Of a stretch of DNA of 64,000 nt, positions 951 through 63,905 are shown piece by piece. Origin of the DNA: Amoebophrya sp. A120 (taxonomy: Eukaryota; Protista; Dinoflagellata); contig CAJINV010000004.1 of the NCBI GenBank assembly GCA_905178155.1, positions 3,245,035 through 3,309,034 of the forward strand, in the 5' to 3' direction. Positions within the stretch are counted from its first letter, which is position 1, and each line of letters begins with the position of its first letter. The position numbers and the translations under genes are program-made. Under the pieces are notes generated by a model that had not been told where the DNA came from, did not search any database, and saw only the letters and a program-made list of their open reading frames with translations.

Positions 951-3900
951 TCAGACACTGTTAAAGTTGTCTTGTGACGCGTTTCCTTTACTGGTGACAC
1001 GCCTGCTGGATTTCTGCCACGTGCCGTCGTTGGCGGTTTCCAGGTTGCCGCTCACCTGCGTTTTCAGGCGCGCGAAGCTCTGGCGCATCTTCGAGCCCCG
1101 CAGGTGGTTGTGCGCCGTGGCGGTCGGGTTGGCCGTTGATGATGCTGATGTGCCAGAGAAATCAAGAGGACCAGAAAAAGCTCCTGCTGGTGCCGCATCC
1201 CCTGAAGAGGACATCACCGCGACGTCTTTGATTACAACGGTTTTATTGTTACTTCGGGTCTTTTTGGGGTACTGAATGAACGCCGGCTGGTCCTCGTTGT
1301 GAAACATGCTTTTTCGCGGTTTATTTGTTCCAAAAATCATATTACCCCCCGACGCCGATTGGATGGAGGTCACCGACGAACCTGCCCCAGGTGGAACAGC
1401 TGGTGCACCTCCAAACTGCACGACTGGGGACAGGTGCACAAAGGTGGAGCCCCGTCCAGAAGTGCTGGGGCTTCGATTGACGTTGATTGCACTGGTGCTC
1501 CCAACTAGTACACCTGCGCCACCTTGATGCGGATCCCCCTGGTGATGTTGTTCTACCGCTTTCACCCGCGCGTGCTCCATCTCGACCTGCTTCCGTGCGA
1601 GCATCATCATGGTCCGCAACTTCCGGGCCTTTTCCGTGACCGCGAGGCTATGGGAGTGCGCGGTGTCCAGGTCGGGCAGGCACTTGGCCTTCTCCAGCGA
1701 CTTCGCCTCCTCGTAGTTCGCCCGGGAGATCTTCACGATGCAGACTTCGTGCGAAGAAATCCACGCGGAATACGCCGGAGTGATCCTCTGGTACCCCTCC
1801 GCGCCGGTGTCCCCCCGCGGGACCAGCGCCTCGATGTTCAGGACCGCGTTCGAGCCCAGGTCCTGCTGGAACTGCGACAAAGGCAACGCCGAGCCGTGCG
1901 AAAACACGTGGTGGTGCGCGATGCGCACGACCCCGGTGAGCACGATAATCATGTCGTCGCAGGGTTTGCCGGCCTGCAGCAAAAAGTCCTCCTGTTCCGG
2001 CAACGCCGAGTGGCTGTTCTTCTTCACGCGCACCTCGACCTGCGCGCCCGTCGCCAGCAGCCAGCGCAGCGCCTTGCCGCCGATCCACCCCTCCCCGACC
2101 TGCCGCATGTGCCCGGTCTGAAACCGCCACGGCAGGCGGCTTTTTAGCATGCTGGTCCAGGACGCGCGAGAAGAACTATGGATGTGTCAGGTTTGAAATC
2201 GTCAGAGTTGAATAAATAGTTTGTCATGCATAAAATGGATGCCAGTTGGAGCCCAGTTTTCAATTGGCGCATGACAAATTTTGGCGATGCCTAAATCCAG
2301 TTTGTGATGCTGTTTGGGTAAGGAAGACGCCTTTTGTCATGCTACTTTAGCAGCTCTATTTCTATCCCTCAACAGGCTTGCAATCTGCCTCCCTTGCCTA
2401 CTCTGCAAGACAGGCACTTTGTGGGTTGCATTTTATGCATCACAAATTATTTCAACTTTGACGATTTCAATCCTGACGCTTCCATAAGAACCTGCTGCGT
2501 CGTGGTCGGACAGCAGTTCTTCCCGGCCAACTGAACCTTCCATCCGAGTCTTATGAACTGCAAAAGTATCGCACTCGTATAAATGCATTACAAATTTCCT
2601 CAGCGTGAAAAATAAAATTTGTAATGCTGATTTACCTTAGGGAAAAGATTTTTTGTGATGCATGATTACAATACGAGTACGACACAACTTTTGCACAGGA
2701 TAAGTCTTACTCACGGCCAGTTCGTGGAACAGTTCCGGCCCGGGGTAGTTCTCCCGCAGGTGCGCACACAAGACCGCAATCTCGAAGGGCGTCAACGGAC
2801 TCTCGGCCAGCGCCTTGTTGAAGACGCGCATGCTCATGGGGTCCACGTTGTAGAAGTGTTGGCCACCGCGGAGCTTCGAGGCCGGCTCGTGGACCATCTT
2901 CGTGAGTTCCAGCAGCTGCTCACGCTCTTCCAGTAGTTCATCCCCTTGCGACGCTTGACTCTTCATCGCAATGCCGCTGCCGCTAGCACTGCTGACCGTG
3001 GAATTATGGTGTCGCCCGGTCATTTCCGACATTGTCTGCAGCTCGATCTGTGAGGCGTTCTTTCGTTTATTGTTGGCAGATTTGGTATTCCTCTTGGATC
3101 CCGAGTTAATTATATCGTCTGCTGATGTGCTGTTGTTTTCCTTGTTATCTACGCTTGTTCCAGCAGCAGCTCCAGTAGTCGCAGCAGCACCAACGGTTGT
3201 TCCCCCTTCCTCGTCGCTGCTCGAGGTTTCCATGCTGAGCGCGCCGTGCAGCAGCGTTTTCGCGACGTCCTCCTTGGCTTCGAGCACCTCTAGGGGCAAA
3301 GCCGCAGACTCGTCGTCGAACTCCTGGCCGAGAATCTCCTCGAAGATGTCCTCTTTGGAGAAGACGCCGATATGGCGTTCTCAAATGTTACATTCTCAAC
3401 TTGTCATGCAAGAATGGGAAAAGTGAAAGGGGGGAGGTTGCACCTGTAGCATTACAAGTTCCGGACCGATTTAAGTGGTGTCTAGCCCTTCGCAAATTTG
3501 TCATGCGAAGCAGCTTGAACTTGATCGTGTGAATGATGATAGTGTTTTTGCATGACAAATTCATGTAACAGTTGAGAAGGTAACCGATTTGAGAACCCCA
3601 TAGCCGAGTAACTTTCGCGTGTCCTCCTCCACGACCAGCGCGAGGTGCGCAATGGTGTATGACAGTGCACAACTGCCCCTCCCCTTCATTTGTCATGCAA
3701 AATACCCAGCCCATCCTTTGTCCCTTGGCACTGAATGCATGACAAGTTCTGGTAGCCCAAATAGCAGTGCAATCCAGTAGACATTATTTGTCATGCAAAA
3801 CCGGCACTGTTGCTGATGCTTGTATTGCCGTTCATGCTATACAAATGAGGGAAAGGGGGAGTTGTGCAATGTCATATGGTGCCCTTTTTGAACACATTGA

Positions 3901-17243: not shown

Positions 17244-20200
17244 CTACATAAACTCTCGCATGGCGTTCCGCACCGGGGCCACGAGCAGGTCCCACAACGC
17301 GCACATGTAGCTCTTCCCAAGGTACTGTCCGGTCTTCGGGTCCATCTGGTCCATACGAAACGCCGTTTTCTCCCCATTCCACTGCAAGACGAAGGTTTGG
17401 CTGTCCAGATTATCCATATGCAAATGTGTGTGGGACTGGAAAGACCATGCAAGGACAAGGTAGTTGTGCTGCTAATCAACAAGGAGCACACATCTAAACT
17501 TGATGCATGAGCACCGATTACTGTTGCCCGCTTTTACTTGTGACGGAAAAAGTAAAGGCGAATTTCTCAACATGCGGCAAAGAAATTGGAAAGCTAAAGC
17601 ATTCGCAAAACTAAAAATTGCATGTAAAAATGCTCTTGTCCGCAGTCCAGCTCCAGACCTTCTATGTTGTCCTTGTCGTCCAGAAGTTGCATGGCAACCA
17701 GTTCTACATTGCATGCTTCCCGACCCAGACATATTCGCATTTGGTACAGATCTGGTGGAAACAGGATGACCGATATGGCGTTCTCAAGTGTTACATTCTC
17801 AACTGTTACATGATTTGTCATGCACAACGAACCTCAACGTCCACAATAAAATGAAGCTACTTCGCATCACAAATTTTGGAAGGGCTAAACAGGATAAGAA
17901 TCTGTGCCGAATTTGTAATGCAAGAGTTGCAAGATCCGGCCTTTCCCTGTTGCCATTCTTGCATCACGAATTCATGTAACAGGTGAGAATGTAACGATTG
18001 AGAATCCCATAACCGGTTGGTAGACGTTATCGTCACTCAAAACGCCGTGTTCAATGTACTTCGCCATCGCGTGGATCGGCTTCAAGCTGGGCAGTGTGCA
18101 GCTGACAGAATTGTCCGGGTACATATCAACGCGCAAATTGAAATGTGTTGGCCCGGAAAAAGATAAACTTGTCATGCTTGTCAGGCACCACATCTGGAAA
18201 ATCCGCATTCCATAGTACCGGACAAAGGCAAAGTTGTATGGCGGCCTCTTTCGTCATACAAAAACGCAATTTGTCATGTACACTACGTGATGCAGCAATA
18301 GAGCACAGCTCGAAAAATTCGTCATGCTTGGCTGCCCTTCAGTAAAGTGATACTCACTTCCGTCAGTCATATTAGACACTTACGCATCACAGCTTTGACG
18401 TTTCCTTTTCTAGACTCAGACACATCATTTCCAAAAATGCGTAGTACAACCACAACTGCGACTGGATGTTGATCAACGCCTTGGAATTTCCCAGAAACTC
18501 GCTATCCAGAAACGCGTACACGCGGACGCTACCCGGCGGTGTGTTGTCCGCCACGACCGGCGCGAAAGAATACAAAGAACCTGTTTTACGGTGGTCCGCT
18601 GTGAGTCTTGTTGCGTCCTCTCCTGTCAGCCACACAGACTCCGGGAGGGAGAAGTAGCTCTCCGTGTTGACATCTTCAGGGGACGATGATGATGATGATG
18701 ATGACGAACCAAGTTCAACATCTAGAACAAGTGCTGCTTCACTTGCAGCTTCTACCGCTGTTGGCCGCTGCTGATCTTCTTCTTTGTCCCCAGCAACGGA
18801 ACTGGGGGTAGACGGGCCGGAGCTACTGGAGGTCCTGGACATCGTATCCGCACTATCTTCCGGTTCCGAAGGAGCTTTTTTCTCGGTGCTTGTATTTTTC
18901 TCGAAAACCCTGCACAAAACTCCCTCCGGCGCCGGAAACTGTGCGTTCCATTTCAGCACGGTCTCGCGCGGAATCATCTTCTCCGCTTATACAATGCAAA
19001 AGTGTCGTACTAGTATAAATTGCATTACAAATTCCCCCAGCATTACAAATTGAATTTGTGATGCTGATTTACTTTGAGAAAGAGATTTGTTATCCATAAA
19101 TGCAATTACTACGAGTACGATACTTTTGCACAGGATACCGCTAACACAGACACCATCGGCTCGATCTCGCTCGCGCGAAACAGGTCCGCCGCAGTCAGGT
19201 CACCGTCGAGCAGGGCTGGTTGCTCTTTCATGATCTGCTCAGCTGGAGAAGAAATTCGCGTCGTAGTACTACTAGAAGTACCATCTCCATCAGGAGGTGT
19301 TTCGGCGAACGCTGTTGACGTAGGAGTACTCGAAGATGACGCACCATGGAAAGCGCGTCGCAGCCGCTCGTCGGTGGCATAAAGATGATCTTGCTCGACG
19401 TCTTCCAAACCTCGTTCTTCTTGTGCCTCGCCGTTATTTGTCACCAACATCTTCTGTGCGGTATCAAAATTCGTAATATTCCTCTTCGCCAATCGAACGA
19501 GGTCTGCTGCAACGTCTTCTTCGAACCCAAACGACTCCACGAGATCCTCTTCCCGCTGCGCAAGGACCCACCCTCTCCGCCACCCGAGGTCGTAGCATGC
19601 GGAGAAGATATGAGAGTGCACAACTCCACCCCCTCCCCCTCATTTCTAATGCAAAATTCGAAATCCACCCTACTTTGCCGTTTGGCACTGCTTGCATGAC
19701 AGGTTCCCGACGCCGAAGCAGTACCAGCCTCGTCGGTCGTGAAGTTGTCATGCAAAAGCTGCATCTGTGCCAGCACTTGTGTTGCTGTGGATGCCATTCA
19801 AATGAGGGGGAGGGGGAGTTCGAGTTGTTGTTGACTCCCATAGAAGACGCCACTGTCCCAGAGTTCTTGCAAGACTTTCCGCACTATCAAATGTAAAAAT
19901 GTCTGGGTCTGGAAGAATGCAACTTGTGATGCTGCATTTGGATTCCAGAAAAATCTGTATTGCATGAGTACCAAAAGGAATGTAATTTTTGCTACGCGGA
20001 GACGGCATCTGTCATGCGGAATAGGCATCAAGAAGCTCTCAAAAAATCTGTGATGCTAGAGCATGCATCACAGACATCAGGGCTCATGCAAAACGTGCAT
20101 GACAAGTGTCAGAATCTTCCAGACCCAGACATTTTTACATTTGATACGCACCCCCGGCTCCAGCACGTCGTCGAACACAATCCAGGTAGGGGCCAGCTGC

Positions 20201-21684: not shown

Positions 21685-23065
21685 ACCGAATCGAAGACGG
21701 TTTGTTTTCAGTTGGCTAGGTGCGGCGCGTGGTCATGCATCTACTTCTTTTCGTCGGAACTTTCCTCACATCTTTGTCCGCCATGTCCAAATGCTGGCTT
21801 CAGTCTGGCACCGAGACCATGATGCGGCCGAGACTTTTTCTCCTCGAGTTCTTGTTATGAATATGATCCCGCTGCTAATAAATTTCTTATACTTGAACAG
21901 AAAAGACCATGAAGATCGCGGGAGTTCTTGTAGTTCTGATTGAGTTCTAAGGAACATCGAAGATCCTGAGAAATCAACCCGGCTAAAGGGCGGGGTCCGT
22001 TCGCACGGCACTAAAGGAAGAGCGGAATCATCCTCGCAAGACGAAATATGCAGCAGTGGTGCGGATCGTTCTCGATAAAAGTTGCACTTGCACACCCTTC
22101 TGCCCAATTTTGTTGTACGAGGAGGAAATCCTTCTCCTTGTTGCAGTTTTTCTGATACCTAAAAAAAACACCATCAACTAATATCTCCATCGATGTTCTT
22201 AGTGAAGATCGCAGCGCTCCGCGGAGTTGCAGCCAGAAGTCTATGTTGATGTTCAACATCCGGATCCGCGGGCACGAGGAGTATCTGAGTACTAGTTTAA
22301 GTACTTACTTACTATCGTGCCTAGTGGTCCGACTAATACTATTCTCTCTCCACCTCATCCCCCGGTGGAGGGAAGTCGTTCCCGATCCCGGGCAGCCAGC
22401 TGGATGCATACCCGATTTTGCCGAAGAGTCTGTGGCAGCCCGACATGACGACCTTGCCCGATGTGCCCGGCTCAACTGGAACAACAATCACGACAAATAG
22501 ATTTACATCTAACCAGATGATGGAAAGCCGAAATTTGTGTTGCATCAAGGGCTTGTTTGCTCCCGCTTCGCATCGCAAATTTTGTGGGCATAATCTCAAA
22601 ACGGTTTGGAGGTGTGTCAGAGATTTGTCATGCTACACTCGTCTCTGATAGCTAACCACACCAGATCATCCACATTTTGCACATACAAATTGTTCCACTT
22701 GCCGCGATCATTGTTCGATCTGAGCAGGCCATACCCGAGTCCCACATTTCCAGGTCGGACTTCACACTTTTCTCGAGTTTCTATCAAAGTGCCGCAGCAC
22801 ATCAAGTCGCCCACTTGTTTCGATTTTCATTCCTCAACTTCTCATGCTAAATTGCAGCAACTCTGCCTGTTGTCCCCTTTTAGTGCAATTTCTTGTTGCG
22901 TGAGGACTTCTACTACGACCGACAGTCGAGGAATGTTCTTGAAGCTGAAATTGTTAATATGCAAAAGCTCCCAGTTAGTCTGCTTTTGTTTCTGTTGCTT
23001 TTATCTCTTTTTCGTGCCTAGCTATTTACGTACTGTGGGGGACTCCTTGAACTTCTTGTGCACTT

Positions 23066-26000
23066 TCATAGCTGTTCGTAGTCGGTGTCCGCATATGGGA
23101 CCAGGCCGAGGCAGGGCCGGTAAGCCCAGTGCCGGACCTCGCGGCCCCCGATCTTGATCCCGAGCGCCGCACCCAGCCCGCGCCAGATCAGCTGTATGAA
23201 GTTGCCCCCGCCCTTGGGCTCCTCGGGCAAGACGGGGCCTTTTTCCGCCGCGAGCAGGACGTCCGGGTCGCGTATGGATGTGTCAGGATCGAAATCGACA
23301 AAGTCGAAAAATTTGTGATGCATAAAATGTAGGGCACTGCAAGCCTGTATTAGGGAGCAGGCAAATGAGGCCGATTGTAAGCCTGTTTAGGGGTATCTAT
23401 ACAATGTGCTGCCAGAGTAGCATGAGAGGAGCAGTCTTCTTCGCCCAACCAGCGCGACAGACTGGATTTGGGCGCTCCCGAAATTTGTCATGCGCCACTT
23501 GGAAACTGAGGCTGCTCCAACTGAGGTCGATTTTGCGCATCACAAGTTTTTCGATTTTGGCAATTTCGGTTCTAACACTTCCATATCGCGCAGAAACTTC
23601 GTCGTCTTTTCTTCGTCCCCTAGGTCGCCGTCGGCTCCGTACACCCAGCCGACACGTTCCAGGACCGGGCGCATGGCCGCCGCAGGCTTCCAGCCCGGCG
23701 TGCCGAAGGTGGCGGCGATACTGCCGGCGGCGCGGAAGTCCGGCCCCATCTTCCCCAGCTCTGCCAGCGCTCCTAACAGCTCGGCCAGAAACAGAACCTC
23801 GTCGTCCCACATGTTGAATATGACCATGGCCTGCAGACAGAGCAACGCCGCACTCTCGGCGTCTTCCTTGCTGGGCGGCCCGCCCTGGTCGCAGACCTCG
23901 CGCGCTTTTTTCGCCTGCAGCCCCCAGCCGCAGGCACACAGCTTGGGTTTCAGCTCTGCTTTCGCGAAGTCCGGCTGCGCGAAACACTTTTCGCCCCACC
24001 GCAGAAACACCCCGCGGGCGCCCTCGAACCCGCCCGCCAGGTGGTAATACCCCGAGCCGCGCTGCTCCGACGGCGAGTCCAGTTTCCGCTCGGCGCAGGG
24101 CGGAAGGTCCTCCTCCTCCGCCACCTTGGCGTCCGCGAGCTGCTTGTTTTCCCCTGAATGCACGTGGCACATTTGCCCTGTTCCCTGTTGCTGCGCCAAG
24201 AAGCTAGCGTACAGGATGGTTTTCCCACTTTCCTCGGTTTGGTCTTCCCCGGGCTCGTCGACGATGTGCAGAAACTTCGTGCTCGAAATATCAAAATGAA
24301 AAACCCCCCTCCCCGTATCAAAACGGAAATCTGTGATCGATGCGGGATTTCAATACACAAATCAAATTTGTCTTGCACTAGAGCACTGCACGCAGATCGC
24401 AAGCCTAGGCAGGGGCCTCTTGCTGTAGGCGCCTAGCATGGCAGAGGCAGACGTCTGCCCTGTAGGCCTTGTAGCATTACAAATCGCCTACATAACGCGG
24501 CGGACAGCCTAAATTTGCCTTCTTGCAAGACAGAGCGGCTTTGTCGTCACAAATCTGCATCACAAATTTTCAGGAGGGTGCGTTTTCAATATGTGGAGGG
24601 GGGATTTTTCTTTGGAATACGAGACCTCCTGGTTCCCGCACGCGATCTTGGCATCCTGCAATGGGTATGGATTGCAAAAGTGTCTGGGTCTGGAAGATTG
24701 CAACTTGTCATGCTAAATCCGAATAATGCAAAAATCTGTGCTGCATGAGTGCCAAAAGCTGTACACTTTTGACCAAGTTGGGAGGGAGTTTCTCATGCAG
24801 GATAGGCATGGCAGAGACCTCACAAACTCTGTCATGCTAGGTTCCGCATTCCAGACCTCAGGGGTCATGGAAAACCTGCATGACAAGTTTCCACTCTTCC
24901 AGACCCAGACATATTTGCATTTGATAATGGGTGCAGCGCGATCAGGCCTTCGACAGCGGCGGGCAAAGTTTCCGCCTTGTCCAAGAAGGCGCAAACGTCC
25001 TCCTCGGTCGTGCTGTCGGTGGAAGACGATGTAGACGTCGAGGAAGAAGATGATGTGCTACTCGTTGTCGTTGTGGTACTACTTTTTTTCTCCTCTTCTG
25101 CTGACGCTTTGTCGTCTTTCTCTTTGTCCTCTTTATCTTTGTTTTGATCACTCTCGTCTTGGTCTTCCTGGACGAGTTGCACAGCCGCGGAAGTTGTTGT
25201 ACTAGATTTTTCGTTTTTTTCTTTCTCTTCGTTTTCTTTGCTGTCACTTGATGTTGTTTCATCTTCTACAACCTTCTTATCGCTTTCCTTGCTGTTTTTA
25301 TTCTCCTTGCTACTAGCACCTCCGTCTTGCGTGAACTCCACGCTCCATCTTTGGCACAGATTTTTCATGTGTTTCCGCTCGTGGCTGTCGTCGCTCAGCT
25401 GCGTTCGCGGCACCTCGAAGGTAAACTGCGCGCTCGCGCCGCCGAACGAAAAGATGTGGTTGTTTTTTTCCGCGCGGGTTTCCAGCTTCGCCTCCTCCCA
25501 CCCGTGCAGGACCCGCATGTGCTGCGAGTCCCGGATCACAAACGCATACCCGTCCTTCTCCCCCTTTTTGTTCAGCTTCATCACGCTTTTCTCGTAATTC
25601 GCGAAAATTTCGTTTGGGTTTTCGTGCCGAAGCCGGCCCCCCGCGGTCGCGTATCCCACCGCGTGAATGGGGATCACGCCAGTAGAAACCGCGTCCGCTT
25701 TGTACTTGTCGCTGTTTTCCACCACGAAGCCCTCCGCTAGACGCAGCACCAGGCTCTCTGCTAGCGCGTCGCACTGCGCGGGCTCGTCCGCATTCTTGCA
25801 GGGTTGCAGGATGTCGCGGGACGTGTGCACGCACCCCTCTCCGGTCAGCACGCGGTCCTCTTCCCCACAACGAAGGAGCGCTTTGTGTGGAGGCGCCCTC
25901 AAGCGTTAGTACGCTGATCGCTGATCATGTTGCGTGGTTTCTACTATGTCGATCTACCACAACGACCACACAGAACCGGCGTCACCGATTCTGTATGATC

Positions 26001-42900: not shown

Positions 42901-45900
42901 CGTTATTGGCCTTCTTGCAGCTGTCGCACCCGCACGTGATCCGCTGCAGCCGAAAGCGCACCGGCGGAGCGCTGTCTTGCAGGAAATAGGCCCTGTACTG
43001 TGCAGGGTCGAAGGACGATGGTGAGCAACCGAAAAAAGGAAAAGCGCGAACCTCGTCGAGAATGTCAAAAAGCTCGTGGTGAAGGCCCTGCAGGTAGTGG
43101 TCTTCCTCCTCGGTGTGACCCGGTGTGCCTACCCGTCCGCACGTGGGGTGGCGCACTGTCAACGGGACTGGTTGCTGCGTTCCAATGCAGTCCGTTAGCG
43201 CTGCGATGCCTATGTGCCTGGAAACTTTCCCCAGGAACTTCTTGTCATTAGTCCCGACCCCGTGCACCCTTTCCTTTACGTTGTCCACAATTTGCTGGCG
43301 CGCAGAGTTGCTTTCTGGGGCCGGCGCGCAATGCCATCCATGCGACCAGTCCTGGGCTACTGGGCAGAGGGCGTCGTGCTCACTTAACTCGAAGTCACCT
43401 GTAGCCCCACCGACGATGTTCAGAGGATAATGATCGAACTCCTCCCGTGCCCAATTCGCGTAGCCCCAAAACTCCTCCGAGTCTGCTACCCGGAAGCGGT
43501 CATCCGGGCCCTGGCGATGAAAAGCGCACTTCTGGAGGTCGCCACATTTGCACCGAGTCGGGAACTCTAGGTCTTTGCGTACCTCCTTGCGCAAGTCCCG
43601 CAACTCACGCCCCAGCTCCGTCGTAGCCGAAAACTCACCAACCCGGATGTCAAACACTTCCCGGAAGATGCTGCTGGCGAATTCGCGGACCAGAACTCAA
43701 AATCCACAATCACGGACGTAGTCACCGACTGTAGCCGCCGATGAACTTCTGCTTGTTGTGTTTTTCGTCTCACGACCGTCGTATTGTTGTTCGTAGCAGC
43801 AGTTTGTTCACCAGCAACTACGTCCGGAACCCGGACTCCCACCACCTCGCACTCAATCGCGTTCGGGTCCGTGAGCCCCAAGCCGTTCACAAAGCCGTCG
43901 CACATCGCGGACTTGAAATCTGTATCGGCCGCTAGGCTGTCTACCGTCGTGTCCCCGGACAGTGTAAAGGAGAACTCCGGCATCCAAGAAAAAAACTGTG
44001 TTAGTGTAAGTCTTTTGATGGGAAAACAGCATCACAAGTTTTTCTGCCATGACAGGAAAAACTTGTTATGCGCAGATAGGAGGGGAAACCACATAGGAAG
44101 CAAGCCGATCATGCATGTCGAGCATGACAAGTGTAACTGTTTTGCATTTTCTGCAGCACAGATTTACACTTACACAGTTTTTTTCTTGCATATCCGGGGA
44201 GAGGGTCAGCGTCTCCCGCTCCGTCACTTCCTGCGTGGTGGCTGATAACACCGCTAACTCCGCGCGGGTCGTGGTGGTAGTAGTGACCGTTGTGGTGGTG
44301 AAGGTCGACGTGGTCGTGACAGTAGTTGTGGAGGTGGTGGTCGAGGTTACCGTGGTCGTAGTAACCGTAGACGTGCTGGTCGTGATAGTACTCGTTGAGG
44401 TTGTGGTAGACGTTACCGTGCTGGTCGTCACTGTGGAAGTGGAAGTTGTCACCGTCGAGGTCGTTGTGGAAGTCACGGTCGAAGTCGACGTGGTCACCGT
44501 TGAAGTGGTGGTGGAAGTCACCGTCGACGTATGAGAGTGCACAACTCCCCCTCCCCCACCCCCTCATTTGTGCTGCATGAACAGCAACACAAGCGCGGGC
44601 AAGGATGCAGCTTTTGCATGACAAATTCCTAGAGGACTGTAGTGCCGATTTGTATTCCGGAATTTGTCGTGCAAACAGCGCCACAAGGCAGCGACTGGAT
44701 TTGGGATTTTGCATGACAAATGAGGGGGACGAGGGCGAGTTGTGCACTGTCATACGACGTGGTGCTGGTACTCGTTACCGTGCTGGTCGTAGTGACAGTC
44801 GACGTCGTGGTGGTCACAGTTGACGTGGTGCTCGTCGTGACCGTGCTAGTCGTGGTGGAAGTCGTCGTGCTCGTCACCGTGGATGTTGACGTTGTGACTG
44901 TACTTGTGGTCGTGGTTGTCGTTGTCGTAGTAACGGTACTGGTACTCGTTGTTGTGAGCGTCGTCGTCGTGCTAGTACTAGTTGTGAAAGTCGTGGTACT
45001 CGTGACTGTAGTTGTCGACGTGGTCGTTGTGGTCAACGTGCTTGTTGTGGTGAAAGTTTTCGTCGTGGTCGAGGTCGTGGTTGAAGTCACCGTACTAGTC
45101 GTCGTGACTGTAGTCGTGGTCGTCAACGTCGTAGTAGTCGTTTTTGTCGTGGTCGTGCTGGTTGTGGTCAGCGTCGTCGTGGACGTCGTGGTTGCTGTGG
45201 TCGTGGTTGTGACAGTCGACGTCGTTGTTGAAGTGAGCGTTGTCGTGAAGGTAGAGGTTGTGGTCACCGTCGACGTTGTCGTAAAAGTGGAGGTTGTCGT
45301 CAAAGTTGACGTTGTGGTTGTCACCGTCGACGTTGTGGTAGACGTGGAGGTTGATGTTGTAGACGTGGTTGTAGTCGTTTTGGTGCTCGTGGTTGTCGTC
45401 AACGTCGTGCCTGATAGACGATAAATTGTTTGTTTTTCTTTTTCATGATTTCGGCTATAGTACTTCTTATTCGTCGTGTCGTACAACTTCATACAACTAG
45501 AGGACTTACTTGTACCACAATCACAACGGGAAGAGAAATCTGACTGTGTCTGTGATACGCCCAGATTACACCAACACGACCAAAAGCAAGAACTACAAGC
45601 AAGCTCCTGCCTCATTTCTCTCTAATTCACGATCGTGAAGATCCTCATATAGTTAAAAGTAGCTTTTTGCTCATTTCAATTTCTTCACATATACAAAAAT
45701 TTCCAAAAACTAAAATCACTGCTAGTACTTGTCGTCGTCACTGTCGTGGTACTGGTTACCGTCGACGTGCTCGTGGTCACCGTGGTCGTGGTGGTCGTCG
45801 TGCTGGTTTCCCCCGGCGCGAGCGTCGTATAGAGACGAAATAGGTGATCTTCAGCACTGTTCTTATCCCTAAAGAAATTCGCAGCATACCGTCGGGATTT

Positions 45901-48900
45901 GCCTTTTTTTTTGCGCCAACGCAGGCGCTGCAGTTTTTATGGTCGCGCCTGCGTAGAAGTGCTGTTGCCTCCCCTGGTGGGTTTTTGCACGCGGCCCAGG
46001 CGTCGTTCTAGAGGAACCAGCAGGCACTTCAGCACCCCGGCGAGCCTAGACCTAGACTAATGAGGCCCCCCCACTTCGCAGATCGACGCGCCCAACGGGC
46101 ACTCACAACACAGCCATCCGGCGCAGGCGAGCATCTTTTCCGCGGCCCCGGGCCCTACGTACTCGCAACCGAAAAAAGGCCGCAAGCCGGCTCGTGCGGA
46201 ACATGTTTGTAACGACCTAAAAATGGTGTTCTTATCTATGCACGAACAGGAGGGATAAGAACAGCATTTTTGAGAGAACGGGAACATCTGGAGGAGAAGC
46301 TTCAACTCTGATCGTCCAATCATCTCCGTGCATAGATGAGAACTTCTTTTATCTATGCACGGAGTTGGAGGATAAGAACAACAGAAAACGAGAACGGGAA
46401 CATTTGGAGCCGAAGCTACAACTCTGCTTCATCCCAAAACACCACAGCAGGTCGCTGCAGTAGTGTTCTTATCTATGCACGAGCGGGAACGTGCGCAGCT
46501 GAAGCACCATCTTTGCTTCGTGGACGTGGTTCCATAGCCATATACATATCATTTTATGGAGCCAGCGCCCCACCGGTCCTAATTTAGGACCGACGGCACG
46601 ACGCAGGCACCAAAGACAACACCGGAGGGGCCATCATCTGCTGCCTGACACAAAGAGAGACGAGTGGGCGCGCACACTGCCGCGGCCCGGTGCGACCGCC
46701 GGCGTAGCCCCGGCTTGGGGGGGCTCTTTGGGTGGGGCATCAGCTCGCGCCCGGGCGCGCAAACTTGGACGCAGTGGCCGGCGGTCATTCTGTCAGTGTG
46801 CAGAGCGCTCCCTGGCGCATGAGCTGGGGCTGCGCTAAGCACGAAAGCGCGACCCTCTGGATGATGCCCGGCGAAGGCTTTGGATAGCCCTGGGCGGTGG
46901 CGCTTTTGTTAGCCTCAGACACGCCAGGCCTTGCCTAGAATAAAAAAAGCCCACGAATCGCGACGGTATGGCGCGATTTTTCTTAGGGATAAGAACACGC
47001 GGAAAGATCAACACCTTTTTCATCTCTATACGTCGTGGTGGTCGTCGTGCTGGTTTCGCCCGGCGCGAGCGTCGTGGTCGTTTTCGTCGACGTCGTCGTT
47101 GTGCTGGTCGTGCTCGTCGCGGTGCTCGTTGTCGTCACAGTTGTGGTCGTCGAGCTTGTGGTGGTGGTAGTCACCGTCGACGTCGTCGTAACGGTGGTCG
47201 TCGTGGTCGTAACGGTGCTCGTGGTTGTCAGCGTTGTACTTGTGGCTCGTCGTAGTGAGCGTCGTAGTAGACGTTGTACTTGTACTCGTCAAAGTTGTGG
47301 TGTAAGTCGTAGTAGAGGTCACCGTCGACGTTGTGGTCACCGTTGATGTACTCGTATCCAGTGCAAAAGTATCGCACTCGTAGTAATTGCAGTCATGCAT
47401 TACAAATCTCCTTTCCAAGGTAAAACAGCATCACAAATTTCATTTCTCACGCTGAGCAAATTTGTCATGCGATTTATACTAGTACGATACTTTTGCATTG
47501 CATAACTCGTCGTCGTTGTCAACGTAGAAGTACTTGTGGTGCTCAAAGTCGTTGTGGTTGAGGTTGCCGTCGACGTTGTCGTCACCGTGCTCGTGGTCGT
47601 TGTAGTACTCGTTAACGTTGTCGTCACTGTACTCGTCGTGGTGGTCACTGTTGTGCTCGTTGTCGTCACCGTGCTGGTGGTTGTACTAGTAGTGGTCGTC
47701 GTAGAAGTACTGGTGGTTGTAATAGTACTGGTTGTCGTCGCAGTGCTTGTCGTGGTTGATGTTACCGTGCTCGTCGTTGTCAACGTCGTACTGGTGGTTG
47801 TCAGCGTCGTCGTACTCGTTGTCGTTGTGGTCAGAGGCGTACTGGTGGTTGTCAAAGTAGTACTAGTTGTCGTCAAAGTAGTACTTGTCGTGGTTAAAGT
47901 GGTCGACGTCGTTGTCACTGTTGTAGTTGTGGTCACCGTGCTGGTTGTCGTTACAGTGGTCGTTGTAGTGACCGTCGTCGCGATTGTTGCTGTCACCGTG
48001 GTTGTCACCGTCGAAGTGGTGGTGAACGTGACCGTGCTGGTGCTGGTTGACGTGGTGGTCGGGCACGCATCTATCCTGTGAGAAAATAACGCCCCCAGCA
48101 TTGCGACCCCAAAGTTCATCTTGCCATGCGGATTTGCATAAGCATGGTCCCAGCAAGCACTACATCTCTCTTCATGCTTTTAAACGACAATGACCACATG
48201 GCAGGCGTTTTCTACTAGACGTTGTTGGAATTGGAGACCTGCCATCCGCCAATCAGCATGAACAAGCGGATTTCTGATGCATGTGGACTAACTAGGCACG
48301 TGGTCTCCCACACTGCACGCCCAAAGTTTGTAATGCAAAAGCCCCAAACTTTTAGAAACTCCAGTAGAATTCACTTTTCTACTAGCACATTTATTGCCAT
48401 GTTCTTAGACAATTATGAGGAGCACGACGGAGGGACGTTTTTCATCCTCAGGTGGATAGCATCCCCGTATTCCACATACCCGTGCCCATACGGACAGTCC
48501 ACGCCCCCGCCCGCGACGGTCGTACTGTGCTGGTAGGTATGCATTGCAAATATGTCTGGGTCTGGAAGATTCCGAGATTGTCATGCTCATGCAGTTTTTC
48601 CAAGCTCCGCCAAGGCTGGAATGCAGGGCATAGCATCACAGGCTCTGCAGCTCCTTGGTGATGCCTATTCTGCATGAGAAATGCCCTCTCAGAATGGCCA
48701 GAATAAATGGGGAGCTTTTGCAAGTCATGCAACACAGATTTTTGTATGATCCGCAACACGCATGACAAGTTCGCATCCTTCCAGACCCAGACATTTTTGC
48801 ATTTGATAGTAGGTCCTTGACCGCTGACTTGGGTTCCCCGTGTACCCATCGCACTCCGTCCACGCTTATCAAATGTAAAAATGTCTGGGTCTGGAAACTT

Positions 48901-50320
48901 GTGATGCTGTGTGGCGTATCATGAGGAGGCGACAATTGCTGGCTCAGCATGACAAGTTTCTGAGCTTCTATGTGTTGCCTATTCTGCATGACAAACTACG
49001 TTTCTGCATGACAGAAAAGTGGGGCTCTTTGGTAATGTGCATGACAGATTTAAGAGTCATGCCAGACAAGCATGACAAACATGCATTCTTCCAGATCCAG
49101 ACACTTTTACAGTTGATAACGCTGTCCAATCCCCCACGCAGTTGGTCCCGCAGTTTTGGCTCTGCGAGGCCCCGTGGCTGTAGGGGCAGGCGCTGCCGCC
49201 GTGCTGGGGGTACCGGTACACGTAGAAGGTGTATCCAAGAAAAAAAGCTGTGTTAGTGTAACTATCTTTGGCTGGCAGCATCACAAATTTGCTCTACATG
49301 ACAGAGAAAATCTGTCATGCGTGGCTTGTAAGGGAAAACACACATGAAAAGAGGACTTCATGGGTGTCTGGCATGACGGGCGTAACTCTGTTGCATGTTC
49401 TGCATTACAGAGTTACACTTACACAGTTTTTTTCTTGCATAAGGTACGGGACTGCTGCCCGTTGCTGCACGCACTCCACTATCAAATGCAAAAGTGTCTG
49501 GGTCCGGAAGGGTCATGCTGTTTTTGCATGACACAGAAGCTCTGGCGTGGAGGCTCTAGCATCACAGGTTCCGAGAAGCTTCCGCAATGCCGAATCCGCA
49601 TGACAAATCCCCCATTTTTTTTTGTGACAGAAAGTCAAAGTGGGCAACTTTTGCATTTGCTGCCTCTGCATGAGAGATTTTTCTCTGTTCTGAAATGCGC
49701 ATCACAAGTTTGTATTCTTCCACACCCCGACATGTTTGCAGTTCATATCCACCCGCCCCAGTAGTACCCGCAGTGTACCGGCGGGTAGTAGGTCGGCGTC
49801 GGGGCCGGGTTGGAGTACTTCGACCCGGGAAGCTTTCGCCGGGGATATTAAATGCAAAAGTGTCTGGGTCTGGAAACTTGTGATGCTGAGTGGCGTAGCA
49901 TGAGGAGGCCACAAGTGCTGGCTCAGCATGACAAATTTCTGAGCTTGTAGGTGTTGCCTATTCTGCATGACAAACTGCGTCTCCGCATGACAGAAAAAAA
50001 CGTCTCTTGGGCAATGTGCATCACAGATTCAAGAGTCTTGCCAGACAAGCATGACAAACTTGCATCCTTCCAGACCCAGACATTTTTACATTTGATAGGG
50101 GAGGTTGAGACACAAAGTCGTGTGTCCACCTCTCATGATCTCCATTCTCGTATTCATCTTCCAGCTCTGCTGCGGAGCCGAAGAATTCATCCTCTTCCTC
50201 GAATATTAAACTTCGATCAGGCGCAGGCACGGGCGCAGGTTGCACTTCATTTGAAGGAAATAAGTCCGCGGCCGCTGCCGAGCATAATCGAAGCAGCAGG
50301 CAAAAACGGAGAAACCACAT
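36936..50320 (-). CDS. large type I membrane adhesin/mucin: signal peptide, two TSP1 repeats, very long Thr/Ser stalk, cupredoxin/phytocyanin-like domain, TPR, TM helix, cytoplasmic tail; interrupted and possibly disabled
   Basis: MWFLRFCLLLRLCSAAAA; WGGWSAC..QSRTF..PQHGGSACP and CVGDWTAWTEC..RSRTY (TSP1); GVYFLTSSHGCELGHKLRVQV; YYDKALQLIPDF (TPR); TM FVILGGAGLVVLILLAVAV. Contains 10 introners, 1 GT-AG intron, a 4-kb insertion and a frameshift near 47245. Confidence 0.7.
39573..39636. repeat. 64-bp exon direct repeat, copy 1 (copies 2 and 3 at 41621-41684 and 43669-43732)
   Basis: Encodes QSVTTSVIVDFEFWSANSPAA; three copies exactly 2048 bp apart, differing at two synonymous sites. Confidence 0.95.
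39637..41620 (-). mobile_element. 1,984-bp insertion, probably a 5'-truncated non-LTR retroelement, copy 1
   Basis: ORF without ATG (40518-41609, Cys/His-rich, frameshifted tail to 40445); about 800-bp 3' region ending in a hairpin and (ATCTG)3; flanked by 64-bp direct repeats. Confidence 0.55.
41685..43668 (-). mobile_element. 1,984-bp insertion, tandem copy 2
   Basis: Appears identical to 39637-41620 (same ORF set shifted by 2048 bp). Confidence 0.55.
43981..44192. mobile_element. introner, family F (212 bp; left end CA)
   Basis: TIR (C/T)AT(C/G)CAAGAAAAAAACTGTGT; TSD TCCGG; restores LSP|EFSF. Confidence 0.9.
44530..44754. mobile_element. introner, family E (225 bp)
   Basis: TSD CGACG; frame restored within the Thr tract. 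Confidence 0.9.
45411..45719 (-). other. canonical GT-AG intron (about 309 bp)
   Basis: AGCA|GTGATT...CTATCAG|GC, phase 1; AT-rich; no TIR. Confidence 0.7.
45828..47030. mobile_element. long introner, family I (1,203 bp)
   Basis: About 85-bp imperfect TIR TATAGAGA(C/T)GAAA(T/A)AGGTG..GTTCTTATCCCTAA; TSD CGTCG; restores TTTT|LAPGET. Confidence 0.88.
47355..47504. mobile_element. introner, family B (150 bp)
   Basis: TSD ACTCG; frame restored. Confidence 0.9.
48072..48458. mobile_element. introner, family G/H-like, degenerate (387 bp)
   Basis: TATCC../..GGATA; TSD GCATC; restores YGDA|CPTT. Confidence 0.8.
48538..48808. mobile_element. introner, family A (271 bp)
   Basis: TSD GTAGG; restores RSRTY|QH. 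Confidence 0.92.
48867..49118. mobile_element. introner, family A (252 bp)
   Basis: TSD ACGCT; restores DWTA|WTEC. Confidence 0.92.
49232..49441. mobile_element. introner, family F (210 bp)
   Basis: TSD AGGTG/AGGTA; restores QSRT|FY. Confidence 0.9.
49480..49747. mobile_element. introner, family A (268 bp)
   Basis: TSD TCCAC; restores WGGW|SAC. Confidence 0.9.
49846..50097. mobile_element. introner, family A (252 bp)
   Basis: TSD GGGGA; close sister of the 48867 copy; frame restored. Confidence 0.92.
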
Positions 50321-51563
50321 CACGGAGAAAGACGAAGAACTGGTCGTCGTGCAGCTCCGGTATAATGCAGCCCGGGCTCTATAATTGCCCGTGGTGGTGG
50401 AGAGTGGGCCACGAGCCGGTTTCATCGCGTTCAATTCCGAAAAATGATGATGTGTCATGAATTCAATATGAAATTAATCAAGCAAAAAAAAAAAGAGCGA
50501 GATATTGTAAATTCGTGTGGGATGAAAGAGGCAATAGCAGTTAGCAAGTAAATATGAAATTAGCAATGTCTGTAGCAAATAAAGATGAACCCGCAATGGA
50601 AATGTAGCAGGCAATCAACTGATCGTATGAATGTTAATGGTAAGCAAAAGAAAAAGAAAGACATATGAAGGTTGCAAAATAAGTGTTCAACAATTGTTGA
50701 GAGATAAGCTCTAATCAGGGCCGTAAAACTCAGCTACTAAACACGAGCTCAACACAGACTGAGGGATGCAAAGAACCTTGGTATAACTACCTTTCACTTG
50801 CATCTTGCCCTTTGCATATTTTCAAAAAAAAAAAGCTGAAATGGGTATGGAAAGAATATGGGTACGTTAGTGAATGGGAGGAAATAAAAGGGGGGTCCGT
50901 CTGTAGGAACAGGTTTGGAAAAACCACGAAGAGATAATGAAGAATGAGCAATGACTGTAGCAGAAGGACAAAGAGTGCCAAAAATGGTAGAAAAATGCTT
51001 TATGTTCAGCTGCTGCTATTCAAGAATGCAACTACTGCCAACGACATAATCAACGATCAATGCGGGGATGCAGTCTGTATATGGATTTCTACGGTCTTGG
51101 CACAGATTCGTCACGGCGGACCGACCTTTATATCAAACTAACTCGAGCTCGTGAAGCACTGCACATCAATGACTGGCAATTATACCGAAATGGAGCGAGA
51201 AGGACAGAAATCACACCGATTCTCTTCTTTTCGCGAGTAGTAGCAGCAACCGAAAAAATATAGCGTGAAATAGCACTAGGCGCACTCGCAGCGTACATTC
51301 GTTCTTAATCTTATGCACATCACGACCGCGGGCAGTAATATATCGTGCATCACGTGCCTGCTACTCAGGCTTAGCTGCAGTTATCCTTTCTTTTGTCTAC
51401 TGCAAATTGGATTTTTACCACTGACAACGCAACATCATCTACTCGATGCCTAGTTTTCAAACAGCACTGGTGTCTGCAGGTCAGCGTCTAACGGTAAACT
51501 AAGTGTCGTTTGATGTTCAGCGATGGATAATTTCAAAGTTTGTGTCGGTACTTATCCCTCCAG

Positions 51564-52603
51564 TTACCGCTTGATGTTGCTGTCATCAGTTTCTAGCTCT
51601 ATTCCATCGCCATCCTCCTCCCCAGCGTCCCCGATAACCGCCTCGGCCATGAGCGCCCGCTGCCGGTCCGCCGCTTATCCGCTGCAAAAGTACTTATCGC
51701 ACCCGTAGTAATCGGAATGATGCATGACAGACTGATATTTTTTTCATCTTCTCCGCTGATTTCACATGACGAAGTCCATATTCCTTTCTGACAAAATTTG
51801 TATCTGCGATAACTACTGGTAAGTACGCTAGTACTTTTGCAAGAATGCATACCGCTGCGGTTATGACGACCGGGCACCACTTTTTCGACGCCTCGGCTTT
51901 TCCTAGTTCCGTCACGTCCTTGGAAAGTTCGTATTGCCGGAACACCGCGTTTCCCAGCAGTACCAGCCCCATATGCCTTGCAAATACGTCTGGGTCTGGA
52001 AGAGGACAAGTTTGTCATGCACATTTTCCATGATCTATGATGTCTATGATGTATGCGATAGCATCACAGATTTTTTAAGCGCTTATCGATGCGCACCCTG
52101 CATGACAAATGCCCTCTCCGCGTAGCCAAATTCTACTCCTCTTGCTGCTCATGCAATACAGATTTTTTTAGCATCCTAATGCAGCATCACAAGTTTGGAT
52201 CTTCCAGACCCAGACATATTTGCAATCCGTATCCCAAGCTCCCGTACAAAAACCGCCGAAACGGGTGGTTTGACACGCGGAACACGCCGAACCGCGTTTT
52301 CTGTCCGCAAAAAAAGTCCTCGTCGATTTTCGCGGCCTTCAAGGCGACGGACTTCGGGGGCCGGTACTTTTGCAAGTCCGCAGAAAAGGTGGTACTGGAA
52401 AGAACCAGGGCGGACGTTCTTGATGAAGCTGGTGGGTGGGAAGGAGCATCAAGTTGTGTTGCTGGCTGCAGAAATGGAAGCGGTGCTGGTGCAATAGATG
52501 TGGTTCCTGCAGCAGTTGATGCACTGCTTCCTAAAGTTCTGATATCCTGCTCCTGGCTTTCCCGCGCATGATTCGTGTAGTCGTTCCCCTTCTTGGTCAT
52601 CAT
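51564..52603 (-). CDS. small single-TM protein, weakly reminiscent of NDUFA13/GRIM-19-like mitochondrial subunits; 3 exons
   Basis: Frame continuous after removing 2 introners: ..TRFGVFRVSNHPFRRFLYGSLGLVLLGNAVF..WCPVVITAAADRQRALMAE..; the family call is weak. Confidence 0.5.
51676..51851. mobile_element. introner, family B (176 bp)
   Basis: TSD CCGCT; frame restored. Confidence 0.88.
51972..52231. mobile_element. introner, family A (260 bp)
   Basis: TSD CCCCA/TCCCA; frame restored. Confidence 0.88.
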
Positions 52604-55472: not shown

Positions 55473-55751
55473 ACGCAAATCGCCATGAGGAACTCGCATG
55501 ATGTAGAAGATGTACACGCGTGTGGATACCGGAATCGAAACATCCACAAATAACAGGCACGAAGCGTCGATCTTTTTGCCATCAAAGAGCTCCCTCTATC
55601 CGAGGGTCTTCACTTCATTTTGTAGGTACGATCAAAAGTCAATTTTTACAAGCGTTTATTTGGTCATTTACAATCCTTCGGGGAATAAAATTCGAGTCCT
55701 TCGCAAAATTGCAATTCATCGCTCCACCGTGTTCAAATAGGGTATAGTTTA
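55473..55751. repeat. dispersed intergenic repeat, copy 1
   Basis: Shares ACACGCGTGT(G/A)GATACCGG..GGAATCGAAACATCCACA..GGGAATAAAATTCGAGTCCTTCGCAAAATTGCAATTCATCGCTCCACCGTG with 63649-63905 and in part with 62688-62772. Confidence 0.9.
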
Positions 55752-55793: not shown

Positions 55794-58700
55794 TATAGTG
55801 GCGGCAGAAGCTTATTTTTTGGAAAATTAAAAAAAACATTGGGTGTCATAGATACTGGCCGCGGAGAGCACCACCACCGCCACGTGTGTCGAGCGTGCTC
55901 GGCTGCGGCGCCTGTGCAGCCGCGGTTGGAATTGATCGGAGAAAAAGAAGGTCGGGCGCCTGGTTGACATAAATGATAGGGCTGGGGGGCTGAACCTTAC
56001 GAAGTGCACTGCACTCGCGGGCCCTGGCTCTAGCTCGATGCCCCGCCGAGGCCTGCGCCGATAGTAGTGGGGCCGCCGGCAAGCGGGCCCTGGTGGCATG
56101 CTTGCCAGTGGCTTCGCGTGTGTGTTTTGGCAGCGCGCCGGGCAGCAGGATGGGCCGGGGAGATGTGGCGAGGAGAAGCATTTCCGTGCCAGGCTTGTGA
56201 AAAGGCCTCGCTTAATGGCCGCGGGAAAATAACAACGCGCCCCGGGCTGCTAGGAGGGTGCGCTTTTTGCCTCCCGCAGCCCTTTCTGAAGCGTCGCCCG
56301 GCGGCTCTTGCTGCTTTTCTACCAGCTCTGGTGGCTGGCCCTTGGAGGGGCGATCGCTGGCGCGCCGGGGTTTCAGAGGGGCCGCGAAAGGGTCACCGCA
56401 CCGGCTGGAGAACATGAAAAAAGCCCCGGAAACGTGCGGCGGCCAAAAACCGCGCCCGTTTTGAAACCTGGGAGCAAGAGCGCCTGCCGCCGGAGTACCA
56501 CAACCAAACTCCGGGCTGGAGGGGCGGAAACTCTTGGTCGCTGCGGCTGTGTCACTCCCGCCCCGGCCCCTGGAGGGGGCGTGGCAAGCGATTGGCCCGA
56601 CCGAATGTCCGCCGCCCAGCGCACCCCCAAAGCGCGGGGCCTTTGCCTCTTTTGGAGGGGCATGAAACGGCACAAAGCGGACTGCCCCTCCTGCGTGCGT
56701 TATGCCCCGCAAGGGCAGTGGGGGTTCGCAGAGTAAGCCAGGCCAGAAGGGCTTCATTGATCGCCAAAAGCGCCGCCAGCCCCGTCCCTTTCCTTTTTGC
56801 CGCGCCATACTCGGATCGGGACAAAGCACGTGGCCGAACACTACCCGCCCGACCAGTCCTACCGACTACGCCCAGTCGGGCACCTTCAACGAGGGCCAAG
56901 GACAGGGCGACGCAGATGCGCACCCACGGCCAAGGAAGGGAGCGCGCGACCGCAAAGAAACGGCCGCCCACCCCTTCTGCGTGTTATCTCCGAGGCGCGT
57001 CCCTAGCCCGCCCGCCCGCGGAAACCCGGGGAAGCGGCAGGGCCCCGGTCGCACCAAACGGGCGAAAACCCCTCCCCCACCCGAGCATGCGCCGGCGGCG
57101 AGAGGAGGGGGAGCAACCTGAGCAGAACTTGTTGGGCCCCCTCTTCCGACAGCCCGGAAGCTGGCCGCCTTAAATGGGCAAGGGTTTCGTGGAACGGCGC
57201 GCGCCGAGCACCCCGAACCCGGGTGGCACGCTTGTCGCCTCGACGGAGCTTCGGTTGGGAGGCTCCCCAACGGAAATGTGAGCCGGGCAACCGGGAACAC
57301 CTGCCGGGGTAGGCTAAAGAGGCACCCCCCCAAAGTGGGCCCGTAGCATGCGGGGTCGCTCTTGCTTAGGGCCACTTTTGGAGACCCTATCCGGGCACCC
57401 CCGTCCGCGGGGCCCGGGGGGGCCCCGAAGTGGAAAACCAGTTGCGGCAAGGGCGGTCACGCAGCACGCGCCCCACATGCGCCCCGGAGCGGCCGCGGGG
57501 CTGCGCAGCTGCCCGGGAGCTTGGCTCCGATTGCCCCGGCAAGCAAGAGCGCCGGCGGTCCTGGCGCCCCAAGCGCGTTGGCTTCTGGTTTTGGCGCCAT
57601 GCGCCCCTCGGTCTGGCCGAAGGAAAACAGCGACAACAAGCACGGCCCACAGCATGCCGGTAGTGTTTTCCCCTGGAAATTGGTCCGCGTCCGCCCTGCA
57701 TTGCCAGCCGGCCGGCTTCGCAATGTTGGCAGGGCGGCGCGCCGAAAGAGTAAGGCGGCCGTGGCGGTCCTGGTGTTTTTGGCATCCTCTAAAAGGGCCC
57801 CGGGCGCCGCGCACCTCTGCGCCCTACCTACTGCGCAAGCGCTGTGGATTTCGGCTCGGGCCAGGAAAGCAGTGGGGCGGCGGAGCCAGGCCTAATCCTT
57901 TCCGCCGTATATTTTTCAGGAAATCGGCCCAAGGCACGGCGGTCGGCCGAGGGGGCTTTTCAGGTTGTAGCCCGCCCGGGCTGGGGCCACTAGAGCACGG
58001 CGCGCCGCGGTCGGGCCCCCCTTACGCGGGCCGTCTGATCAGTTCCCCACCTGCAAAAAGGGGGGCCCGGGTGCCCCGCTGTGTTGCCCAGCGCGGCGGC
58101 GCTTGTACTCTGGCCTCCAAACGTGCTGGCAGTGTCGGCGGGCGGTTGTTTTCCGCGAAATTGGTATCCGAAATGCCGCCGGGTAATTCTTGCAAGGAAT
58201 CCCGCGACTTGGCGGAAGCGCGCTAGGGGGCGGCTTGGGAGGTGTAACCAAACCGCAGGCGCCTTGGCTGGGATGGAGCCACGTCTCCGCCCGCTTTGCA
58301 GGAATGGGGCTGCTCGAAAAGAGCGAGTGTCGCGCGGTTGGAGAATTGTGGTCAGCCGAGCAGGGGTCGTGGGCGGCGGCCGAGGGGTGTTGCGGCTCCT
58401 CGCCGGGCAATCAGGGATGGGCATTGCGGCCGATGATGCCGCCTGACCGGGGCGCAGGAGCATGGCCCCGGGGCATCTGGTGCGGCGCAAGGCGCTCGCC
58501 CATTCCACATCACGCCGTGCCTTTGGGTTGGCCAGATTCGGCCGCGCCTGCCGGGCCTCCGCCTGCCCCGACCAAATTCGGAGCGGCGCAGACCTGGCGG
58601 GATTGGCCCGTCTAGGGGTCAACGACGGGCCCGGCTCCCTGCCCACGATGCCCGCTCTAGCGTGCGCGGACGTTAAAGTTGACGTGACCTTTCGCGCCTT

Positions 58701-58902
58701 CTGCTAGGGGTTCTGCGGTGGTGTGATGTGTTTGACTTTGCGGCAGCACGGCAGAGCAAACTGGGTAAGCGTTGCGCTGGCGTGGGTCTTACGCCGTCCT
58801 GAGTCCAGAAGCGTGATGATTCGGCTGGGCTGCGGGGCCCACGATAAAGCCACCCAATATTTTTTTTAATTTTCGCAAAAATAAGCTTCTGCCGCCGCTA
58901 TA
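55794..58902. mobile_element. 3,109-bp intergenic TIR DNA transposon with introner-type termini and a degenerate GC-rich interior
   Basis: 52-bp TIR TATAG(T/C)GGCGGCAGAAGCTTATTTTT..GAAAATTAAAAAAAA(C/T)ATTGGGTG; TSD TGCTT at 55789-55793 and 58903-58907; abrupt shift to GC-rich sequence inside. Confidence 0.9.
57300..58700 (-). pseudogene. possible decayed IS630/Tc1-like DDE transposase
   Basis: Weak motif remnants in the expected order across frameshifts: RRHFGYQFRGK, FLQVG/TDQT, NFQGKTL..CLLSLF; not verified by any search. Confidence 0.3.
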
Positions 58903-62687: not shown

Positions 62688-62772
62688 ACGCAAACCGCCA
62701 TGAGAAACTCGCACGATGTAGACGATATTAACACGCGTGTAGATACCGGTGGAATCGAAACATCCACAGATA
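62688..62772. repeat. dispersed intergenic repeat, partial copy 2
   Basis: Matches about 55473-55551. Confidence 0.8.
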
Positions 62773-63648: not shown

Positions 63649-63905
63649 ACACGCGTGTAGATACCGGTGGAATCGAAACATCCACAGATAACAGGCACGA
63701 AGGGTCGATCTTTTCGCCAAGAAGCGCTCTCTATCCGAGGGTGTTCACTTCATTTTGTATGTTTGTACGTACAATCAAAAGTTGAATTAAATTTTACAAG
63801 CGTGTATTCGGTCATTCAGAATCTTTCGGGGAATAAAATTCGAGTCCTTCGCAAAATTGCAATTCATCGCTCCACCGTGACCGTGTTCGGATAGGGTATA
63901 GTTTA
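63649..63905. repeat. dispersed intergenic repeat, copy 3
   Basis: Matches about 55514-55751. Confidence 0.9.

Follow-up and report, generated by a model that had tools for sequence, protein, structure and literature searches.

What marks the interior of an introner, and which process reads that mark? The question arises from a 232-bp intron at 3371..3602 of the window, the 64,000-nucleotide stretch of the Amoebophrya sp. A120 genome analysed here. An initial annotation of the window had proposed that introner families with unrelated terminal inverted repeats (TIRs) share an internal, alternating TGTVATGC word, and that this word could be the real determinant of splicing or excision rather than the termini. 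The long open reading frames of the window lie on the minus strand and are broken up by TAT...ATA elements flanked by 5-bp duplications (TSDs). The catalogue holds 50 short elements (46 automatic, 4 by hand) and two long ones (45828-47030 and 55794-58902); family letters were assigned anew and may differ from the A-H of the initial annotation. A possible decayed element at 22782-23070, with one 15-bit site and an unclear TSD, was excluded.

These elements fit the A120 introners of PMC7789003, which in the available text have inverted repeats starting with TAT, seven loose bases and then As, direct repeats, a length of about 240 nt, non-canonical ends and co-oriented host genes. The same text gives roughly 30,000 A120 introners, with no known mobilising enzyme or splicing mechanism. 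Together with copies from a second assembly, 469 short, non-coding, multi-copy elements with TIRs and TSDs were analysed (15 multi-copy clusters). The TSD is perfect in 341 of the 469, the element finder having demanded at least three of five matching bases. Weighted by family, a TAT start has a frequency of 0.97-1.00 and A at positions 11-13 has 0.68, 0.76 and 0.89; the family consensuses read AAA there in 10 of 14 cases, TCA in three and CAC in one.

The internal word and its arrangement

The element at 3371..3602 is a family C introner (TAT...ATA) forming an intron of a minus-strand gene. Its TSD copies at 3366..3370 and 3603..3607 are identical, and a contig from run X3 skips 3366-3602, the 237 nt that make up the element plus one TSD. 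The left TIR (3371..3400, plus strand) is constrained at positions 1-3 (TAT) and 11-13; the right TIR (3571..3602, minus strand) has an approximate inner limit. Between them lie four cores: an inward-facing one of 18 bits at 3402..3409 (plus strand, TGTCATGC), one of 17 bits at 3449..3456 (minus, 47 bp past the first), one of 20 bits at 3499..3506 (plus, 50 bp past the second) and another of 20 bits at 3550..3557 (minus), which faces inward from the right end. The four alternating sites reported earlier are thus present in strict alternation, the first about 9 bp to the left of its earlier placement at ~3411.

In the window as a whole, TGTVATGC has 139 matches against 7.26 ± 2.73 expected, a count reached in none of 100 shuffles, and 137 of them fall inside the 50 short elements, in agreement with the repeated interior motif described for families A-H. 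The other two (9706 and 14485) lie in open reading frames and are the only ones in the ~52 kb outside elements; window sequence that is neither element nor open reading frame has no strict match anywhere. Of the four GT-AG introns said to lack the motif, the statement stands for the two that RNA confirms (best scores 4.3 and 1.3 bits). The full motif is a 14-bp word, about RAAYYTGTVATGCW, which at 8 bits occurs 17.5 times per kb inside elements and 0.48 times outside. All 50 short elements carry at least one site of at least 8 bits, as scored by a weight matrix trained on these same elements. The outermost site lies mostly 36-50 bp from the element end, and longer families hold more sites, as had been suggested (Spearman 0.82 over 14 families).

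The RBFOX word UGCAUG and the ApiAP2 word TGCATGCA were considered as identities for the motif and rejected on account of the freely varying V base and of the motif's absence outside elements. The window gave no match to Rfam, and a two-site pattern scan of viral sequences returned 41 loci; all lacked a convincing combination of TIR and TSD and were taken as chance. The available text of PMC7789003, PMC12130899, PMC9860276 and bioRxiv 2020.10.14.339549 mentions no internal motif for Amoebophrya introners (figures could hold one), and the last leaves Amoebophrya unmentioned. The supplement text of Farhat et al. (PMC7789003) contains 'CATGC' nowhere and describes only inverted and direct repeats, to which the internal array is an addition. 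The motif is real, under selection and spaced; it belongs to a known introner class and has apparently gone undescribed.

Alternation did not hold up as a rule. In the window 61 of 140 adjacent pairs alternate, where shuffling within elements gives a mean of 67, and strict matches alone give 45 of 90 (shuffle mean 48). Only families C (12/12) and D (7/9) alternate there, with 15/60 in F and 2/8 in E. Strict alternation is also absent from all five loci named as recurrences: 9424 reads -+++, 19885 ++++--, 43981 -+--, 44530 +--+- and 53425 +-++. The proposed spacing of 35-55 bp accounts for 47% of adjacent spacings, but the main peak is at 31-33 bp between sites facing the same direction. The family F element at 19885..20146 exemplifies this commoner layout, with same-direction pairs about 31-32 bp apart. 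Such 31-33 bp pairs occur among members of 13 of the 14 families (20-100% of members; 0/35 in C), with a look-elsewhere-corrected P of 0.002 for one random member per family and 0.0007 when singletons are added. Measured from a strong site, offsets peak at ±32 and ±93-95 in the same direction and at +15, +47, -17, -35, -48/-50 and -66 in the opposite one, so that several peaks differ by about 32; the 47- and 50-bp steps of 3371-3602 are part of this general lattice. Since the families are related and indels in 32-bp spacers are just modestly rarer (0.029 against 0.041 per 10 bp), part of the spacing is inherited.

Selection, decay and descent

Additional copies came from a three-site pattern scan of metagenomes, which returned at least 128 loci. 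Among the matches listed, assembly JACKZZ01 supplied 83 non-redundant loci (479 kb) with the same families as the window; 40 loci outside it were left out (22 inspected ones were tandem repeats or chance, 18 were uninspected), as were five further sub-ranges. Of 419 elements called there by TIR and TSD alone, 405 have a site on the window-trained matrix, and the motif is also carried by four families that the window lacks (J, K, L and N). The pattern that picked the loci favours families A, C and D (89/115 copies, against 1/301 in the other eleven), so key tests were rerun without these three. Strict matches in the JACKZZ01 loci number 1,458, of which 1,180 lie within called elements; 281 lie outside, 211 of them resembling known elements and 70 not.

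Several loci have further peculiarities. Two to five intact motifs without recognisable TIRs occur at L042 ~1832, L050 ~1332, L072 ~4651, L075 ~485 and L119 ~6306, in AT-rich stretches with several motifs 32-38 bp apart; these clusters were picked by motif and are hence biased, and are possibly very old introns that keep it. At L052 505-1608, L072 3862-4492 and L076 4568-5189 the element has grown by roughly 0.4-0.8 kb through insertion into its interior, while keeping its ends and TSD. A 2.46-kb element with family-F ends and a perfect TSD (L113 476-2934) holds an orphan 415-codon frame with no Pfam match and no homologue except itself. Looking for insertions duplicated along with their flanks turned up a single near-identical pair, too few for power; a comparison of coding with non-coding insertions was noisy (115/185 controls open), and TSD mismatch tried as an age clock gave weak differences.

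If the shared word were a bystander, it should decay like its neighbours. Across 377 copies in 19 subfamilies, the seven fixed bases of the core mismatch their consensus at 0.047, against 0.213 for the other interior and a context-matched expectation of 0.198; the TIR stands at 0.107 and the V position at 0.24. The rates are thus not equal, with 4-5 times fewer changes in the core than in adjacent sequence. Trees of 340 copies place its rate relative to the interior at 0.11 for internal branches against 0.39 for terminal ones, with 0.45 and 0.74 for the TIR and 0.94 and 1.07 for the V control. Only 52 core changes were counted in 10,513 internal branch-sites. Without families A, C and D, the core rates are 0.14 internal and 0.42 terminal. 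Constraint on the core is about threefold looser on terminal branches. Judged from these trees, constraint is strongest on the lineages that went on copying. The terminal rate is 0.39-0.42, not 1, which either unsampled ancestors or selection after insertion can explain. More constrained than the motif are TIR positions 1-3 and 11-13 (terminal 0.15-0.33, internal 0-0.04), the first three being required by the element finder and the latter just loosely; positions 4-8 are free.

The motif had also been said to persist where TIRs have decayed. The copies at 18124 and 25886 do keep two strict sites each, but the core decays in old copies: in 21 with decayed TIRs it mismatches at 0.174, the TIR at 0.266 and other sequence at 0.291. 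Persistence in such copies partly reflects redundancy. Within subfamilies core mismatch barely climbs with TIR divergence, from 0.054 to 0.066.

Simple descent from one recent family was the other explanation to be weighed. With motifs and TIRs masked, the window families align locally little above shuffles, and are therefore not one recent family. Anchored consensus alignments reveal old homology, with z ≥ 4 in 12 of 180 between-family pairs (best G/E 5.7, C/D/K 4.6-5.6 and F/A 5.0), by which measure the families are not statistically independent. To call their TIRs unrelated was an overstatement: TAT opens every one of them, AAA stands at 11-13 in 10 of 14, and several families share deep homology. 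This homology and the weak indel constraint are what one would expect if word and spacing were neutral leftovers of common ancestry, which may hold for some spacings. For the word itself that account is refuted by a core so much better conserved than its neighbours around a neutral V, and by the scarcity of core changes on internal branches; as a whole we regard it as very improbable. Motif sharing instead reflects descent plus selection, given old homology yet a conserved core. The word is a common cis-signal, as first proposed, under purifying selection, and many of the 'families' may be one superfamily run by one protein.

Removal of the elements from RNA

Runs X3 and X6 are presumed to be RNA; their contigs skip at least two GT-AG introns as well as at least 18 TIR elements, each skip comprising the element and one TSD, with exons free of mismatches in those records. 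The elements at 18124, 25886, 22462, 6058 and 59284 are not among the RNA joints listed, and the 65 raw RNA reads of run X9 include none that is informative. One deep contig in X3 and X6 covers a Thr-rich, mucin-like gene with 11 introns at 43690-50900.

Seventeen of the 18 skipped TIR introns have at least one site, a lone one in one case and sites of a single polarity in two others; the eighteenth is site-free. For example, the RNA contigs skip 49480..49747, with four sites that are all UUGU... in the mRNA sense, the old element 48072..48458, with three that are all GCAU..., and 51676..51851, a decayed copy of family B that retains just one site. The site-free case is the 1,203-bp TAT...ATA element at 45828..47030, which has a 5-bp TSD, no TGTVATGC and a best matrix score of 2.1 bits; X3 and X6 contigs skip 1,208 nt there. 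Both of its ends read TAT-N7-AAA. It has a repeat of its own, TGTTCTTATC, which lies some 33 and 35 bp in from the ends and recurs four times internally, within 116-120-bp repeats; the JACKZZ01 loci contain no copy of the element. In this spliced element the motif is dispensable for excision. The motif is thus not supported as the determinant of splicing over the termini: an element without it is precisely removed, TIR positions 1-3 and 11-13 are more constrained, and old copies lose it. The case against a splicing requirement is this single motif-free intron, whose own repeat could play the same part.

A GT-AG reading fits just 15 of 308 elements, and the available text of PMC7789003 reports a failure to find U1 in these genomes. 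Both points leave room for a redundant splicing aid, in which a protein binds the motif in pre-mRNA and both polarities are kept so that either direction of insertion works. The residual constraint on terminal branches, the retention of a site of at least 8 bits by every short window element and the existence of motif clusters without TIRs are consistent with it. However, introns with no site, with a single site or with one polarity are found spliced, and the core decays in old copies. Nor is there a net strand bias. Gene strand could be assigned to 417 of 469 elements, and in the window 47 of 50 assignments were right locally. Sites of the two polarities number 813 and 804 in mRNA; terminal-branch loss is similar for both (0.38 and 0.49). 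We consider such an aid unlikely but not negligible. All 14 families are inserted in both directions, 34 of 405 elements are without one polarity and 34 without the other, and orientation is skewed in families E (4:16, P 0.012) and G (11:26, P 0.020), both uncorrected.

The ends are the better candidates. Euglena nonconventional introns, in the available text of PMC12501133, are likewise non-GT-AG and have paired terminal motifs whose distance from the boundary does not vary, as TAT and positions 11-13 are fixed here. The letters differ, the Euglena rule was tested by knock-in whereas the terminal rule here comes from sequence comparison, and no internal array is mentioned for Euglena, whereas the elements here have one. 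By this analogy, we infer that splicing here depends on the ends, as it does under the terminal code of Euglena. Two separable signals would follow: an internal array, likely for mobility, and TAT plus 11-13, a candidate splicing code common to the motif-free intron. At two introns with mismatched TSDs (49227-49446 and 51967-52236), the first TSD base in the mRNA is that of the upstream copy and the last that of the downstream copy; because the mRNA mixes the copies at both joints (49232 and 51972), the cut lies inside the duplication.

A protein on DNA or stems in RNA

The initial annotation offered two forms for the signal, a protein-binding array or the stems of a multi-hairpin RNA. For the stems, in which forward and reverse copies would pair, one can cite the outer two sites of 3371-3602, which lengthen the TIR stem in a predicted fold (z -6.0), and a mean predicted core-core pairing of 0.38 in 150 folded elements. 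Yet the inner pair of 3371-3602 is unpaired in that fold, core-core pairing is below 0.1 in 25% of the folds while TIR pairing is predicted in 98%, and family E alternates at just 2 of 81 neighbouring pairs. Opposite-orientation pairs in five spacing classes gave no covariation, the V base matching its partner in 42-50% of cases, no better than permutation (P 0.14-0.66), and the commonest pairing is of same-direction sites. The stems are largely refuted by these results and highly unlikely to be the signal.

A protein on double-stranded DNA is favoured by the strand symmetry, the lack of covariation and same-direction pairs that are incompetent to form stems. The protein-binding array of the initial annotation is the most likely reading, and fits the 31-33 bp spacing. 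On balance, we lean towards the word being an array of double-stranded-DNA sites for a mobilising protein and not a signal needed for splicing. One transposase, or a host DNA-binding partner, would occupy the sites in multimeric form; since 32 bp make three turns of the helix, sites at that distance would lie on the same face of it. The protein would read only TAT, positions 11-13 and part of each TIR, so that TIRs and spacers could drift apart within a superfamily of old common origin, and splicing would rely on the paired ends. The repeat inside each end of the motif-free element is what would be expected of a second lineage that has a binding word for itself.

Alternatively, a host protein on double-stranded DNA, such as a chromatin or transcription-coupled factor, might mark the element, with a part in its copying as well as in its co-transcriptional excision. 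Such a protein would agree with the strand symmetry and the helical spacing, with the residual terminal constraint and with the available text of Farhat et al. (PMC7789003), which reports no transposase in A120. Two strict matches in ~52 kb outside elements would be unusual for a general host factor, however, and the motif-free element is spliced; we hold this version to be rather improbable. Equally doubtful is a combined scheme in which one protein that reads the 32-bp-phased array on DNA would both copy the elements and tag them for U1-independent removal, a parallel protein serving the TGTTCTTATC lineage. If true, it would amount to a DNA-level intron mark common to tens of thousands of non-canonical introns.

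Subterminal binding-site arrays are also found in CACTA elements and in Tn7/Mu. The available text of PMC11707139 describes them in piggyBac/piggyBat, Tol2, Tag1 and Ac, where, as here, a short word is repeated inside the ends and outside the TIR, and where the arrays are needed for synapsis. Unlike those, the putative binding array here fills the whole element, has a 32-bp period, accompanies diverged TIRs and sits in elements that are spliced. PMC7789003, in its available text, rules out general transposase mobilisation, whereas the array argues for one common mobilising protein.

The enzyme might be an integrase-like transposase, a guess from the 5-bp TSD and the TA...TA ends; most LTR integrases make 5-bp TSDs. 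GingerRoot (PMC6839031, available text) shares the TA...TA ends but has a 6-bp TSD and a TIR of 100-150 bp, against 5 bp and about 30 bp here, where no coding element was found. A120 family 38 is described in the available text of PMC12130899 as TIR elements with Copia/Gypsy-like frames. No transposase family was detected in 21 long open reading frames scanned, 69 further ones lying outside the scan. The conserved, spaced 14-bp word offers a direct bait for fishing the protein out.

The second long element, at 55794..58902 (no strand assigned), is a GC-rich, motif-free TAT...ATA element of 3,109 bp between two genes, with a 52-bp TIR and a perfect 5-bp TSD; its four open reading frames checked have no Pfam match. 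Similar intergenic sequence occurs at 55520-55740 and 63650-63880, with a shorter piece near 62730. Elsewhere in the window, at 39577-43700, a stretch of ~2 kb stands in tandem at an offset of 2,048 bp, either a duplication or an assembly artefact; a loose end of the X3 and X6 contigs at 43669 matches sequence near 39545.
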